Of a DNA stretch of 64,000 nt, positions 24,462-57,986 are shown piece after piece. Every line of letters starts with the position of its first letter. Positions within the stretch are counted from its first letter, which is position 1. Under the pieces are notes generated by a model. It was given only the letters and a program-made list of their open reading frames with translations. It was not told where the DNA came from and did no database searches. The DNA comes from a virus (Duplodnaviria; Heunggongvirae; Uroviricota; Caudoviricetes). Location of the stretch: positions 131,760-195,759 of the IMG/VR virus record IMGVR_UViG_3300017722_002988; one strand, written 5' to 3'. A program made the position numbers and the translations under genes.

Positions 24462-24739
24462 TGTTTCGCAAACGTTATCCCTACGTCGTTGAGCTGCTTC
24501 ATAGCGGCCATCATCCCTACGTTTCTGATCCCACCTACGACATGTTCGAGGGGATCAAGCAGGAACAGGTTCACGTGATGGCCACGGGCTATGATGATGC
24601 GGCCAAGCGAGCATTCCGTGAATCCAAAGTCCGGTCGTGGAGAACCACGGTTTGGACTGTTCGTCATAAAGAAGCAGGTGAGCATCTGCTTCCGGGCCGC
24701 CCGGCCCCATTCTATCGCTGTGGACAGAAAGCTAAATAA
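24461..24739 (+). CDS. Hypothetical protein
   Basis: TAATG coupled, 92 aa. Confidence 0.55.
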   Translation: MFRKRYPYVVELLHSGHHPYVSDPTYDMFEGIKQEQVHVMATGYDDAAKRAFRESKVRSWRTTVWTVRHKEAGEHLLPGRPAPFYRCGQKAK

Positions 24740-25683
24740 TGAAAAAAACCGTAATCGTTGACATGGACGGCACGATCGCCGACTGCGAGCATCGCAGACA
24801 CCACGTCGACACTGGAAACTGGCCTGCCTTCTTCGAGGGCATGCATGAGGATGGCGTGTTCGAACATACCCGCGAGGTCGTGTTCGCTCTGCATGCTGCA
24901 GGTTATGCCATCGTAATCGTTACGGCTCGTCCGGACGAGAACGACTATCGTGCCAAGTCGGTTGAGTGGCTGAACCGTCATGGGTTCACTTACGACGCCA
25001 TCTACATGCGCAAGGGCGGTGACTATCGCAAGGACAATATCGTCAAGAAGGAAATCCTGATGGATTTGCTGAACGATGGGTATGAGCCGGTGATGGCGCT
25101 GGATGACCGCAATCAGGTCGTTGCCATGTGGCGCGAGATGGGTATCCCCTGCATGCAGGTGAACGAAGGCGACTTCGACAACCGCCAGTCGCGCTACGTG
25201 CGTGACAATCAGGGCAAGGAAATGCTGCACATGATGATCGGCCCTTCGGGTGCCGGTAAGTCGACTCTGATCAAGCAGCGTTACCGTCCTGAGGACGTGG
25301 TCTCGTCTGACCAAGTCCGTCGTGATCTGTTCGGTTCGCATGACGCTGCCCATGTCCACAACCCTGACAACCTGGCTCTGACGTGGGCTTACACCCACAA
25401 GCTGGTTCAGGCTCGGATGGAATGTGGTCTGTTCACCGTTCTGGACTCGACTGGACTGCGCCGTAAGGACCGTCTGTCGGTTCTGGAACTGGTTCCTCAT
25501 GGGTATCTGGTCCGCTATGTCGTGGTCGACCGTGACTATGACGAGAAGATCAAGGACCGTGATTGGCGTCCTGTGGCTCTGATCGACAAGCACCATCAGG
25601 CCATGAAGTCGGCTCTGAAGGACGTCATGAAGGCGGATGGCTTCGGCCATATCGTCGTGGAAGACACGCGTAAGAAGCGCTGA
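24739..25683 (+). CDS. pnk: Polynucleotide 3'-phosphatase/5'-kinase with HAD domain N-terminal and kinase C-terminal
   Basis: DMDGT, DYRKD.IVK.E, DDR.QVV.MWR (T4 PseT-like phosphatase); GPSGAGKST, SSD.VR, VLDST (P-loop kinase). Confidence 0.85.
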   Translation: MKKTVIVDMDGTIADCEHRRHHVDTGNWPAFFEGMHEDGVFEHTREVVFALHAAGYAIVIVTARPDENDYRAKSVEWLNRHGFTYDAIYMRKGGDYRKDNIVKKEILMDLLNDGYEPVMALDDRNQVVAMWREMGIPCMQVNEGDFDNRQSRYVRDNQGKEMLHMMIGPSGAGKSTLIKQRYRPEDVVSSDQVRRDLFGSHDAAHVHNPDNLALTWAYTHKLVQARMECGLFTVLDSTGLRRKDRLSVLELVPHGYLVRYVVVDRDYDEKIKDRDWRPVALIDKHHQAMKSALKDVMKADGFGHIVVEDTRKKR

Positions 25684-34436: not shown

Positions 34437-34465
34437 TTGTACTTAATATCCATTCATCGTATTAT
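34437..34465 (+). promoter_or_regulatory. Early promoter (leaderless)
   Basis: TTGTAC-17-TATTAT-6 nt-ATG (34472). Confidence 0.85.
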
Positions 34466-56385: not shown

Positions 56386-56492
56386 TGAAACACGCTTCAT
56401 TCCAATGTCAAACGTGTGGCGCTGATATCGGCTACCTAGGTCGCTTCTTGATGTGGGTGTTCGGGCCTTTTGCTCCTCATACGCATTAAGTA

Positions 56493-56521
56493 TTGTACAT
56501 AATATCCACACTTCGTATTAT
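56493..56521 (+). promoter_or_regulatory. Early promoter (leaderless) dedicated to the CCA-enzyme gene
   Basis: TTGTAC-17-TATTAT-GGGATT-ATG (56528). Confidence 0.85.
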
Positions 56522-56527
56522 GGGATT

Positions 56528-57634
56528 ATGAACAAGATCGCTTTTGAGTGCCCGGCTAAGATCTTCCCGATCTGGAGCCAGATGGAGGCCGAGGGTTTCG
56601 AAACCCGGGTCGTTGGCGGGTTTGTCCGTGATATGATCATGGGTCACACTCCCAAGGACATGGACTTCTGCACGACCATGACTCCTGAACAGATGATCGA
56701 CTTCGCGGACCGTAACGGCTTCCGCGTCGAGCCCACCGGCATGCAACATGGCACGGTGAGCTTCATCGTTGATGGTGAGGCCTTCGAGTTCACCACGTTG
56801 CGGGTTGACACCGACTGCGATGGTCGTCACGCCACGGTCCAGTTCACGACTGATTTTGAAGCTGATGCCGCTCGTCGGGATTTCACCTTCAACGCCATGT
56901 CCATGGACATAGCTGGTAATGTTCACGATTTCTTCGGTGGTGAGCAAGATGCTCACAACAAGGTGGTTCGGTTCGTCGGTTCTGCTGATGAGCGGATCGC
57001 TGAGGACTTCTTGAGGGTCATGCGCTTCTTCCGTTTCGCTGCTCGTTTCGAGACCGAAATGGATATGGAAGCTTGCCGGGCCTTCACGAATCCGGCTGTT
57101 CATGCTGGTTTGGCCAAGGTCTCGCGCGAGCGGGTCTGGGCTGAAGTGTCCAAGATGATGAGCGCTCCTCGCCCTCAACGAGCTGTTGAGATGATGTTCG
57201 CAACGGGTGTTGCCAATGCTGTCGGCATGGGTGTCAACGAGTTCGCTCACATGGCCATGACGCACGGTGATGATCACTGCGCTCGCATGGTCGGCTTCTG
57301 CGGTGATGACGTGGTCGGCTTCTGCCGGGACATGAAGGTCTCCAACGAAGAGCGTAACAAGATGGTCTTCGTGACTCGCCATGCTGGCAAGGTTACGAAG
57401 TCTCAGTTCGCTGGCATGATGATAGACGGTGAAAAGCAAAGCCACATGGTCTCGGTTGCCAAAATGACTGATCCTTCGTGGATGGAGATGATGGACAAGC
57501 CTGTCCCCGTCTTCCCCGTTACTGGCCAGATGATGATGGACTCGGGCATGAAGCCTGGTGCTCAGATGGGTCAGGTCTTGAAGGTGATGCGTGAAGCATG
57601 GAAGGCCGAGATGGTCAAGGAGATGGTTCGGTGA
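56528..57634 (+). CDS. cca: Class II tRNA nucleotidyltransferase (CCA-adding enzyme)
   Basis: VGGFVRD, catalytic DMD, TTLR, RRDFTFNAM, EDFLR, VSRERVWAE. Confidence 0.92.
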   Translation: MNKIAFECPAKIFPIWSQMEAEGFETRVVGGFVRDMIMGHTPKDMDFCTTMTPEQMIDFADRNGFRVEPTGMQHGTVSFIVDGEAFEFTTLRVDTDCDGRHATVQFTTDFEADAARRDFTFNAMSMDIAGNVHDFFGGEQDAHNKVVRFVGSADERIAEDFLRVMRFFRFAARFETEMDMEACRAFTNPAVHAGLAKVSRERVWAEVSKMMSAPRPQRAVEMMFATGVANAVGMGVNEFAHMAMTHGDDHCARMVGFCGDDVVGFCRDMKVSNEERNKMVFVTRHAGKVTKSQFAGMMIDGEKQSHMVSVAKMTDPSWMEMMDKPVPVFPVTGQMMMDSGMKPGAQMGQVLKVMREAWKAEMVKEMVR

Positions 57635-57786
57635 GTGTTAACAAACTTGCCGAACATCTCTATACCACTTTTTGGCAGCGTAACAATGTTGAGAATCCAC
57701 CACCTCTCGGCGAACAAGCTACTGCCATAATCAAAATGTGGACTAACATTGCGTTGTCCGCCCTTGACTTTAAGGAAGACAAATGA
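57631..57786 (+). CDS. Hypothetical protein
   Basis: GTGA-coupled ORF. Confidence 0.45.
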   Translation: MSVNKLAEHLYTTFWQRNNVENPPPLGEQATAIIKMWTNIALSALDFKEDK

Positions 57787-57986
57787 AAATCTTTTTCGAT
57801 CTATTGACCATCATTTTTATCCTGATCGTGATGGGAGTATTTTTAGGCTTCGACGGATTCCTGGGAATCCTTCTTATGGTCACAGTCGTGGCTGCCATCT
57901 TCTATGTGGCATTCTGGCTGCTGATTTTTGGTGGGTTAGTCGCCATCGCAAAGTACATTATGGGCGAACCGCCTAAGAACGATTAG
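57783..57986 (+). CDS. Small membrane protein
   Basis: Hydrophobic 67 aa; its stop codon overlaps the stop of the convergent gene. Confidence 0.55.
   Translation: MKIFFDLLTIIFILIVMGVFLGFDGFLGILLMVTVVAAIFYVAFWLLIFGGLVAIAKYIMGEPPKND

Follow-up and report, generated by a model that had tools for sequence, protein, structure and literature searches.

The window analysed here is a 64,000-nt stretch of the 198.6-kb genome of an uncultivated, T4-like freshwater phage, in which 245 ORFs were scanned. Its plus strand carries a gene for a class II CCA-adding enzyme, with a promoter immediately upstream and two small ORFs immediately downstream (Table 1). We placed the start of the gene at 56528 because the 25 in-frame codons upstream carry three Tyr codons, a TTA codon and the promoter.

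Table 1 Features of the CCA locus, in window coordinates (columns are alignment columns shared with the relatives L001, L003 and L004)
Feature	Position	Strand	Details
-35-like hexamer TTGTAC	56493..56498	+	recurrent phage promoter type; kept in L001, L003, L004, L008, L091, L093
-10 hexamer TATTAT	56516..56521	+	17-nt spacer after -35; 6 nt (GGGATT) to ATG
Class II CCA-adding enzyme gene	56528..57634	+	368 codons and TGA; PF01743, PF12627
Retained Leu TTG in TTLR	56798..56800	+	column 101: CTG in L003 and L004, TTG in the window gene and L001
Retained Leu TTG in EDFLR (motif D)	57011..57013	+	L162, invariant in the 14-sequence alignment A1
Retained Leu TTG in GL	57110..57112	+	L195, invariant in A1; column 207: ATG already in L001
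Retained Leu TTG near the C-terminus	57578..57580	+	column 385: ATG in L001, CTG in L004
Small downstream ORF, 51 aa	57631..57786	+	GTG overlaps the CCA stop (GTGA); ordinary Leu and Tyr
Second small downstream ORF, 67 aa, hydrophobic	57783..57986	+	ATGA overlap; ordinary composition

The CCA enzyme and its promoter

In the Pfam analysis, the CCA protein matched the Pol-beta-type head domain (PF01743; 1.2e-29, 103.7 bits against a cut-off of 23) and the RNA-binding neck (PF12627; 5.4e-08). It aligned over its full length with human TRNT1 (8cbm; E = 2.7e-57, residues 21-360) and over the head only with the poly(A) polymerase PcnB (3.6e-18), and on this sequence comparison the full-length protein is more similar to CCA-adding enzymes than to enzymes of the poly(A) polymerase or A-adding type. 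The top NCBIfam model was NF009814 (CCA tRNA nucleotidyltransferase; 3.9e-52), matched at 177.6 bits, below the equivalog cut-off of 290. In the 14-sequence alignment, motif A (GGxVRD, residues G30, G31, V33, R34 and D35, together with the DxD residues D44 and D46), motif B (RRD; R116, R117, D118) and motif D (EDxxR; E159, D160, R163) are invariant, as expected from the original prediction, which had named DxD, RRD and EDxxR as intact. The dN/dS of the gene, 0.17-0.24 in the clade comparison, indicates purifying selection on the protein, a ratio that speaks to constraint only and not to CCA addition itself. The gene product is best read as a working class II CCA-adding enzyme, that is, a predicted builder and repairer of tRNA 3' ends.

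The enzyme resembles human mitochondrial TRNT1 (PDB 8cbm, 4x4w, 1ou5), bacterial Cca (1miv, 6ibp) and the annotated phage copies of Agrobacterium phage Atu_ph07 and the Caulobacter CcrBL9 type in head domain, catalytic motifs and length. It departs from the family in composition, with 1.1% Leu against a mean of 10.8%, 10.3% Met against 2.2%, and no Tyr, and from known CCA enzymes in its use of a single Leu codon and in its predicted leaderless promoter. The Atu_ph07 (L024) and CcrBL9 (L067) enzymes, in contrast, are of ordinary composition.

The promoter belongs to a set of 16 sites of the TTGTAC-N16-18-TATTAT type on the plus strand of the genome, most of which are followed by a leader of ~25 nt (GGGAATGTAAGAAGGA...ATG). 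An arrangement of TATTAT or TATATT, 6 nt and ATG, with no Shine-Dalgarno sequence, occurs in seven clade members, and the leaderless arrangement is kept down to ~50% protein identity. From the -10-to-ATG distance we predict a leaderless mRNA transcribed from an early-type promoter, in agreement with the earlier proposal and now with conservation in relatives. The 51-aa ORF, which matched no Pfam family, is likely to lie on the same transcript, and equivalent small ORFs directly follow the CCA gene in relatives.

Composition of the CCA gene within genome and family

The 368-aa translation contains no Tyr and four Leu, all four encoded by TTG, so that neither CTN nor TTA codons are found, together with 38 Met (10.3%), 30 Phe (8.2%; TTC in 27 of 30), 37 Val and 9 Ile (2.4%, which is low). 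The gene uses 45 of the 61 sense codons, A-ending codons are nearly absent, and CGG encodes 9 of the 25 Arg residues. These counts bear out what had been read by hand, namely the lack of Tyr, the TTG-only Leu and the high Met and Phe; Leu had been described as retained in TTLR and EDxLR, and it is found in TTLR, in EDFLR and also in GL. The motifs RDMIMG, TGMQHGTV, DFFGG, EDFLRVMRFFRF and GQMMMDSGMKPG are present in the protein. Since Tyr is naturally low in the family (mean 1.3% in 95 ordinary homologues), its absence is less extreme than that of CTN and only moderately surprising; the nearest clade has ~10 Tyr. Ser, which had been called normal, is so relative to the family (3.5% versus 3.7%) but stands at half of the genome mean.

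A genome-wide scan, suggested with the original prediction, singled out the CCA gene as the sole outlier without low complexity among the 245 ORFs (zero CTN, p=2e-12; Leu, p=5e-9; Met, p=3e-14; A-ending codons, p=2e-11); Leu deviates more strongly in one ORF alone, which encodes a collagen-like protein of Gly/Ala/Asn repeats. As TTG makes up 12% of Leu codons genome-wide, four TTG out of four has p ~2e-4. Compared with the 95 ordinary homologues, the protein deviates by z=-6.4 in Leu (mean 10.8%, minimum 5.6%), z=+7.0 in Met and z=+4.7 in Phe, and none of these homologues shares the depletion. Recent transfer from a GC-rich bacterium was rejected on the same set, which never falls below 5.6% Leu or 0.5% Tyr. 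At its downstream end the depletion stops with the CCA gene, as the adjoining 51-aa ORF has ordinary Leu and Tyr. The depletion is thus gene-specific, as neither the remainder of the genome nor the ordinary homologues show it.

Part of this pattern is shared with other genes of the phage. When the 131 ORFs of 150 aa or more are ranked by avoidance of A-ending codons, Pnkp comes first, CCA second, Rnl1 third and Rnl2 seventh, with the major capsid gene twelfth; the four tRNA-repair genes shun these codons more than the capsid gene does. Tyr is normal in Pnkp, Rnl1 and Rnl2, and Pnkp contains 20 CTG, one TTG and 12 Tyr, which agrees with the contrast drawn originally (~21 Leu, 12 Tyr). The capsid, scaffold and Pnkp genes all use CTG (capsid and scaffold CTC and CTT as well), with TTG and CGG each at 0-1. 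This comparison bears on the possibility that the CCA gene is a highly expressed early gene that underwent extreme codon optimisation plus lineage drift, with Leu to Met and Tyr to Phe changes as near-neutral hitch-hikers. Its 45 codons are matched by the 43-48 used in scaffold, capsid and Pnkp, and many phage CCA genes at IMG/VR loci exceed their own genomes in GC and CTG. However, ordinary optimal-codon bias does not produce a gene that is TTG-only and writes so much of its Arg as CGG, since these codons are shunned by the capsid gene and near-absent from scaffold and Pnkp, and Met reaches 4-5 times its genome mean and lies 7 sd over the family mean. Similar losses on independent branches and a monotonic fall in Leu (see below) are also left unexplained, and we consider this possibility improbable.

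The depletion is in frame. Avoidance of an mRNA-interferase motif in all frames, as in ACA-less genes, was rejected: 65 CT dinucleotides are observed over all frames against 73 expected, and TA is reduced yet present (10). A codon-aligned antisense ORF (56486-57445, 319 aa, His-rich) is open because TTA, CTA and TCA are absent from the CCA gene, and antisense CAT (His) would be read as ATG in the sense strand. It is extremely improbable that the composition is a by-product of such an overlapping gene; the ORF matched no protein family and was rejected as the driver, the ATG codons lying at Leu columns of a conserved, constrained enzyme.

Codon series and convergence among relatives

The relatives of the window gene form a graded series. 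Leu is encoded by 22 CTG out of 22 codons in L004 and by 22 CTG and one TTG in P0014; by 14 TTG and four CTG in P0007 and 10 TTG and two CTG in L003; and by TTG alone in P0020 (6/6), the window gene (4/4) and L001 (2/2). Across the clade, Leu thereby declines monotonically from 23 residues to 2, and orthologous columns run from CTG through TTG to ATG, so that the lineage-specific Leu to Met change raised at the outset is found as a progressive one. CTA, CTC, CTT and TTA, which account for roughly half of the Leu codons used locally, never occur in the CCA genes of those clade members that have a DNA sequence. Because the sole Leu codon kept ends in G and alternates between CTG and TTG among relatives, the sequences support a depletion that works on codons and not on residues alone.

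This codon-level constraint tells against selection on the protein itself, in which Leu, Tyr and Ile would have been lost to escape a protease, a modifying effector or a binding inhibitor, or Met gained to buffer oxidation. The replacements are conservative ones at family-conserved hydrophobic positions and Met reaches 10%, which such selection could account for. Yet synonymous choice is constrained as well, with CTG and TTG only over a dS of ~1; Leu is chemically inert, Leu to Met and Tyr to Phe keep the hydrophobic or aromatic character that proteases recognise, and the residues dropped differ between lineages. We give a protein-level cause little credence.

Tyr-free or nearly Tyr-free CCA enzymes are found on separate branches (the window gene with P0001 and P0002; P0020; P0018/19; P0053; P0023; P0036; L028), and Ile is reduced to zero in P0018/19 and to two in P0053. 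The CCA gene is again the outlier among its neighbour genes in L005, L006, L007 and L028. Judged from these sequences, Tyr-free, Ile-free and Leu-poor CCA enzymes arose independently on separate branches, and the sets avoided are Ile and Tyr, Tyr alone, or Leu and Tyr, in line with the expectation that relatives might avoid different codons. That other phages independently lost different amino acids suggests an enzyme made for synthesis during partial tRNA failure. Against this reading stands the ordinary composition of most phage CCA genes, ~60 of the 69 IMG/VR loci surveyed.

HigB-type toxins prefer codons with A at the third position, and in-frame avoidance could also protect the mRNA from an endonuclease that depends on the ribosome and cuts particular codons in the A site (a phage shut-off factor, or a toxin of the RelE/HigB/YafQ type). 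The normal CT count over all frames, the 39 TA dinucleotides of L005 beside zero Tyr codons, and A-ending codons as the most avoided class would all follow. Such an endonuclease does not account for why the CCA-adding enzyme is the recoded gene across several unrelated phages, nor for the CTG/TTG alternation between sister lineages, and we know of no RelE/HigB/YafQ-type toxin with Tyr, CUH and Ile specificity; it is quite unlikely to be the cause.

tRNA supply as a candidate selective agent

Because the avoidance falls in frame and extends to synonymous codons, it tells against avoidance of a motif, an antisense gene, transfer of the gene, and a cause lying purely in the protein. For a depletion that is gene-specific, codon-level, progressive and convergent, in an enzyme of recognised family under purifying selection, we infer impaired tRNA supply as the selective agent, and our best explanation, held tentatively, is that selection keeps the enzyme translatable despite the failure of particular tRNAs. 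Selection would have rewritten the gene so that its own synthesis needs the fewest tRNA species: neither tRNA-Tyr nor a reader of CUN or UUA, and hardly any reader of codons ending in A, with the four remaining Leu all readable by one isoacceptor, tRNA-Leu(CAA). Replacement of core Leu by Met, Phe, Val or Cys and of Tyr by Phe would keep fold and catalysis, and transcription from the conserved early-type promoter as a leaderless mRNA would allow the enzyme to be made in an infected cell that decodes Leu, Tyr or A-ending codons poorly. Several points weigh against this explanation: the Ile-free variants misfit a rule based on the variable arm, avoidance of A-ending codons by itself is also expected from very high expression, and a general block of Leu and Tyr decoding would also stall Pnkp, which relies on 20 CTG and 12 Tyr codons, as well as Rnl1 and Rnl2, in which Tyr is normal.

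A shortage of charged tRNA could arise with no nuclease at all, if massive synthesis of late proteins, or a limited supply of amino acids, exhausts charged Leu-, Tyr- and Ile-tRNA and the gene relies only on isoacceptors that stay well charged. Leu is the most used residue of the phage proteome, and CTG and TTG are reportedly the starvation-robust Leu codons of E. coli, with CTA, CTC and CTT sensitive (Elf 2003 and Subramaniam 2013 are said to have described this), which matches the CTG/TTG-only rule of the clade. But starvation gives no reason for this enzyme alone to require protection, unless uncharged tRNAs lose their CCA ends, and the promoter looks early, not late; we regard it as unlikely.

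As to which agent would impair the tRNAs, the best-fitting published one would be a toxin of the MenT/AbiEii nucleotidyltransferase type, which acts by blocking the 3' ends of tRNAs with a long variable arm; further candidates are tail-cleaving nucleases such as Cas12a3 and cleavage of host tRNA-Leu induced by the phage in the manner of T-even phages. A 1971 report is said to describe T-even phage-induced cleavage of host tRNA-Leu. Known tRNA-Tyr nucleases (PtuAB/Septu) cut the tRNA body or variable loop, beyond repair by a CCA enzyme, and cuts of this type count against CCA-enzyme repair of tRNA-Tyr. In mycobacteria, MenT3 extends tRNA 3' ends and picks its targets by the long variable loop, and an overexpressed CCA-adding enzyme counters it (PMC11541572). 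The MenT3/PcnA pair resembles our proposal in the tRNA-specific 3'-end lesion, the class II variable loop and reversal by a CCA enzyme, and differs in its tRNA-Ser target, its toxin-antitoxin setting and the lack of a phage enzyme or codon depletion (PMC11541572); the link to the window phage would be our own extension. Changes of tRNA-Leu after T2/T4 infection are termed minor and strain-specific in a passage of a 1966 paper (PMC3328318). OLD depletes wobble-U tRNAs that read ACA, GGA, GUA and CCA (OLD preprint), and all four codons are absent from the CCA gene.

A stronger form of the proposal is that the missing codons of phage CCA genes name the tRNAs disabled at their 3' ends, the leaderless enzyme being a bootstrap that restores decoding. 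The tRNAs named here would be tRNA-Tyr and all tRNA-Leu other than the TTG reader, disabled by a MenT/AbiEii-like toxin that recognises the class II variable arm or by a T-even-style tRNA-Leu cut. We consider this form doubtful. Nearly all tRNA genes of the window phage encode their own CCA, which weakens a strict bootstrap role in tRNA maturation and leaves no obvious need for the enzyme in maturing replacement tRNAs. The interpretation offered originally is partly supported, in that the depletion is gene-specific, codon-level and lineage-specific.

The tRNA genes were also considered in their own right. The tRNA-Leu(CAG) of the phage ends ...GCAC/ATC, with no encoded CCA, and CTG is absent from the CCA gene, a pairing that fits a rule by which codons of CCA-less phage tRNAs are avoided. 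As a generality the rule is not supported: CTC, CTT and CTA are also avoided though their tRNAs encode CCA, and another phage (G006) has CCA-less short-arm tRNA-Leu genes yet a CCA gene that is one of the ~60 of ordinary composition. Class-I-shaped tRNA-Leu were found in 49 IMG/VR contigs by one narrow pattern, and since such tRNAs are common in IMG/VR phages, their co-occurrence with a depleted CCA gene weighs little. Of two phages with Tyr-poor CCA enzymes, one carries a normal tRNA-Tyr and the second lacks tRNA-Tyr altogether (n=2). A search that paired tRNA clusters with CCA genes in relatives through the protein beside the Leu cluster gave no match. Decoding of AUG as Leu by a phage tRNA(CAU) was rejected, as none of the three CAT tRNAs looks Leu-like and one looks initiator-like.

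The tRNA-failure explanation has an analogue in cognate bias, by which biosynthetic enzymes are reportedly poor in their own product and sulphur-assimilation proteins poor in sulphur, as credited to Alves and Savageau in 2005 and Baudouin-Cornu in 2001. In both cases a protein that relieves a shortage would be written without the scarce item; in the window gene, unlike in cognate bias, the scarce item would be particular tRNAs, the signal reaches synonymous codons and the depletion is near-total. By this analogy, the CCA depletion would be a tRNA-level counterpart of cognate bias. MazF-mt9 cuts tRNA-Lys(UUU), and AAA-poor genes stay translated. Like MazF-mt9 and the phage tRNAs that evade tRNases (PMC11555353), the proposal has tRNA depletion set which mRNAs are readable and involves adaptation of phages to immunity that targets tRNAs. 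Phages are known to respond with replacement tRNAs, with inhibitors or with repair by Pnkp and ligase; the proposal differs in that a repair gene would avoid the targeted codons; our literature search for codon-depleted phage CCA genes, or for a repair gene rewritten around targeted codons, found none.

Whatever its cause, the CTG to TTG to ATG series is a rare and clean example, within one gene, of directional selection sustained on the choice among synonymous and near-synonymous codons. tRNA-targeting immunity is a fast-growing field (PrrC, PARIS, retron/Septu PtuAB, OLD, Cas13, Cas12a3, MenT/AbiE). Cas12a3 cuts CCA tails, and no viral answer was known according to a 2026 paper (PMC12851939); phage CCA-adding enzymes of the window type are obvious candidate answers. 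If the tRNA-failure explanation is true, a repair enzyme that can do without the disabled tRNAs would represent a counter-measure of a new kind, and the tRNAs attacked in uncultivated phage-host pairs might be predicted from sequence alone. If the bootstrap form is also true, the dropout sets of other phages, such as Ile and Tyr, would name the targets of further tRNA-directed immune systems.

Composition of the CCA gene

The CCA protein has a nucleotidyltransferase head (PF01743, 1.2e-29) and an RNA-binding neck (PF12627), and its residues 21-360 align with human mitochondrial TRNT1 (PDB 8cbm, E=2.7e-57); the poly(A) polymerase match is far weaker (3.6e-18, head only). The top NCBIfam model is CCA tRNA nucleotidyltransferase, with a score under the equivalog cut-off. 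The catalytic motifs GGxVRD, RRD and EDxxR and the DxD carboxylates do not vary across an alignment of 14 sequences, and DxD, RRD and EDxxR are intact as first described. The phage genome is one 198,633-bp contig (50.5% G+C; the window is its 131760-195759), syntenic relatives contain T4 baseplate, gp2, gp5, gp53, gp32 and gp59 genes, and the source is an uncultivated T4-like phage. We placed the start codon at 56528 because the 25 in-frame codons 5' of it, which overlap the promoter, include three Tyr and one TTA. The next two small ORFs, which overlap the stop of the gene, have ordinary Leu and Tyr usage.

The original prediction described a gene stripped of Tyr and CUN Leu codons, an observation that is confirmed and extended here. 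Translation gave exactly the reported counts, namely 0 Tyr, 0 CTN, 0 TTA and four Leu, all TTG (56798, 57011, 57110, 57578), with 38 Met (10.3%), 30 Phe, 37 Val and 9 Ile. When 245 non-overlapping ORFs called in the genome were each tested against the genome codon frequencies, the CCA gene showed the highest Met enrichment (p=3e-14), a significant absence of CTN codons (p=2e-12) and the strongest avoidance of A-ending codons (p=2e-11). Only one ORF reaches lower p-values for Leu, Ile and Tyr; its product is a collagen-like protein of 1,395 residues with Gly/Ala/Asn/Pro repeats (34% Gly, without an internal Met), whose values follow from its low complexity. Relative to 95 ordinary homologues, whose lowest Leu content is 5.6%, the CCA protein lies 6.4 sd under the mean for Leu, 7.0 sd over it for Met and 4.7 sd over it for Phe; its Ser content is normal for the family. 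Because Tyr is naturally scarce in the family (1.3% in the 95), its complete lack stands out chiefly beside the nearest clade, whose members have about ten. The gene uses 45 of the 61 codons (simulated mean 59.2, minimum 53), a low number equalled by capsid-type genes; unique to it is the identity of the missing codons and residues, not codon number. Antisense to the gene and codon-aligned with it runs a His-rich ORF of 319 codons that matched no protein family and is open only because the sense strand lacks TTA, CTA and TCA.

Features of the CCA locus and related genes (window positions unless prefixed G000:C1, the whole phage genome; L094, L095 and L005 are DNA loci or contigs)
Feature	Position	Strand	Remark
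CCA-adding enzyme ORF	56528-57634	+	368 residues; PF01743 + PF12627
-35-like hexamer	56493-56498	+	TTGTAC
-10 hexamer	56516-56521	+	TATTAT, 17-nt spacer after TTGTAC
TTGTAC-N17-TATTAT promoter starts	33626, 34437, 43102, 44181, 44651, 47460, 50095, 51158, 53959, 56493	+	
Antisense ORF	56486-57445	-	
Pnkp	24739-25683	+	HAD_PNKP phosphatase + AAA_33 kinase
Collagen-like repeat protein	G000:C1:27400-31587		
tRNA-Leu genes	G000:C1:104292-104948 (L094 13293-13949)		outside window; 4/5 encode CCA
tRNA(CAU)	G000:C1:104376-104447 (L094 13377-13448)		between two tRNA-Leu genes
137-nt tRNA-like gene	G000:C1:111829-111965 (L095 929-1065)		GGGCGCC acceptor stem, A73, CCA
AT-rich phage CCA gene	L005 482-1624		Logan SRR16229186 contig

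Leucine codons and residue dropout among relatives

We tabulated the codons of relatives' CCA genes against local backgrounds of neighbouring genes. Leu codons are G-ending only in every T4-like clade member tabulated; CTA, CTC, CTT and TTA number zero in these CCA genes, and neighbouring genes take roughly half of their Leu codons from these four.

Leucine codons of CCA genes in the window and in relatives (P, homologous proteins; L, DNA loci)
CCA gene	Identity to window protein	Leu codons
Window		4 TTG
L001	83%	2 TTG
L003	76%	10 TTG + 2 CTG
L004	63%	22 CTG
P0007	54%	14 TTG + 4 CTG
P0014	50%	22 CTG + 1 TTG
P0020	separate long branch	6 TTG

At orthologous columns, Leu passes from CTG (L004) to TTG (L003) to ATG (window, L001), and Tyr from TAC to TTC. 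Window-clade genes have dS of ~0.7-1.7 and dN/dS of 0.17-0.24, at which unconstrained drift from CTG should have produced CTH codons, and none is seen. In the scaffold, major capsid and Pnkp genes, CTG serves for Leu (joined by CTC and CTT in capsid and scaffold) and TTG and CGG occur 0-1 times each, whereas the CCA gene takes only TTG for Leu and encodes 9 of its 25 Arg by CGG; its codon choice is not ordinary optimal-codon use. Avoidance of an mRNA motif was ruled out, with CT dinucleotides in all frames at 65 against 73 expected and 39 TA dinucleotides in a relative without Tyr codons.

The loss of Leu and Tyr is lineage-specific, and relatives differ in what they drop (Ile and Tyr; Tyr; Leu and Tyr). 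Within the window clade, a gradient leads from 18-23 Leu, ~10 Tyr and 17-19 Met to 2-4 Leu, 0 Tyr and 38-39 Met. The 120 best homologues include P0018/P0019, with no Ile and 0-1 Tyr, P0053, with no Tyr and 2 Ile, P0023, without Tyr, and P0020, with 6 Leu and no Tyr; these dropout genes occupy separate branches of a maximum-likelihood tree. At all four loci compared (L005, L006, L007, L028), the CCA gene is a composition outlier among its own neighbours. The L005 gene (52% G+C on a 38% G+C contig) is an independent, even sharper case, with 0 Ile, 0 Tyr, CTG for 23 of 28 Leu and one AAA against 25 expected. About 60 of 69 phage CCA genes at IMG/VR loci are of ordinary composition.

Promoter, tRNAs and other repair genes

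The leaderless promoter claimed for the gene is borne out at the level of sequence: GGGATT (6 nt) separates TATTAT from the ATG, with no Shine-Dalgarno between them. This predicted layout is kept in L001, L003, L004, L008, L091 and L093 and is absent from the distant lineage L007. Of the 16 promoters of this TTGTAC/TATTAT type in the genome, most lead into a conserved ~25-nt leader that contains AAGGA, GGGAATGTAAGAAGGA. Those at 34437, 47460 and perhaps 51158 also have an ATG 6 nt after the -10, marking further candidate leaderless genes.

ARAGORN called 38 tRNAs in the phage, nearly all with encoded CCA, and no canonical tRNA-Tyr(GUA). It reads the 137-nt gene as an intron-containing tRNA, below the Rfam tRNA model threshold. 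The five tRNA-Leu isoacceptors (GAG, UAG, CAA, UAA, CAG) all have a class-I shape, a variable loop of 5 nt and A73; tRNA-Leu(CAG) ends in GCAC followed by ATC and so needs CCA completion. A narrow DNA pattern from these genes matches 49 IMG/VR viral contigs (L096-L144), many with several tRNA-Leu genes of 74-78 nt, some encoding CCA and others not. A class-I shape of tRNA-Leu is widespread in phages, and one such phage carries an ordinary CCA gene, so co-occurrence with a depleted CCA gene has little weight. The tRNA(CAU), without encoded CCA, has initiator hallmarks (a 1-72 mismatch, three G-C pairs by the anticodon loop); if it is an initiator, it would be of interest alongside leaderless genes.

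Of the 131 ORFs that reach 150 aa, Pnkp avoids A-ending codons most (5.1%, the lowest share); the other three tRNA-repair genes, CCA and the RNA ligases Rnl1 and Rnl2, rank 2, 3 and 7, ahead of the major capsid gene at 12. For Leu, Pnkp takes CTG at 20 of 21 codons, agreeing with the early remark on its CTG preference; for Ile it takes ATC at all 13, and for Lys AAG at 18 of 20.

Proposed selection on decoding

To account for these data, selection must have acted persistently, and on this gene specifically, on the codons, hence tRNAs, needed by the CCA mRNA. In the simplest reading, the enzyme would have to stay translatable while part of the decoding apparatus fails, a sparing akin to cognate bias, the shortage of an amino acid in the enzymes that synthesise it. 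Published systems make decoding failure plausible. Defence tRNases deplete tRNA-Tyr (PMC11555353, PMC13096335), and OLD depletes wobble-U tRNAs for Thr, Gly, Val and Pro (OLD preprint), which read ACA, GGA, GUA and CCA, all absent from the CCA gene. Cas12a3 removes CCA tails, with no viral counter known (PMC12851939). MenT3 (AbiEii family) blocks tRNA 3' ends, choosing targets via the long variable loop of class II tRNAs; deleting two nucleotides makes a tRNA-Leu a full substrate, and an overexpressed CCA-adding enzyme counters the toxin (PMC11541572), an example of tRNA-specific damage that such an enzyme can mend. We infer that systems of this kind may bear on this phage. A simple total decoding block is argued against by the dependence of Pnkp on CTG and Tyr, by the CCA encoded in phage tRNA genes, and by the ordinary composition of most phage CCA genes. 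The original interpretation is partly supported. Four rivals each account for some of the data: escape from a codon-specific ribosome-dependent mRNase, a lack of charged tRNA in which no nuclease takes part, protein-level selection on the enzyme, and extreme optimisation combined with drift. None of them covers at once the restriction of Leu to CTG and TTG, the specificity for this enzyme family and the convergence. Our literature search found no published description of codon-depleted phage CCA genes, and the gene encodes an enzyme of known kind whose adaptation is apparently undescribed.
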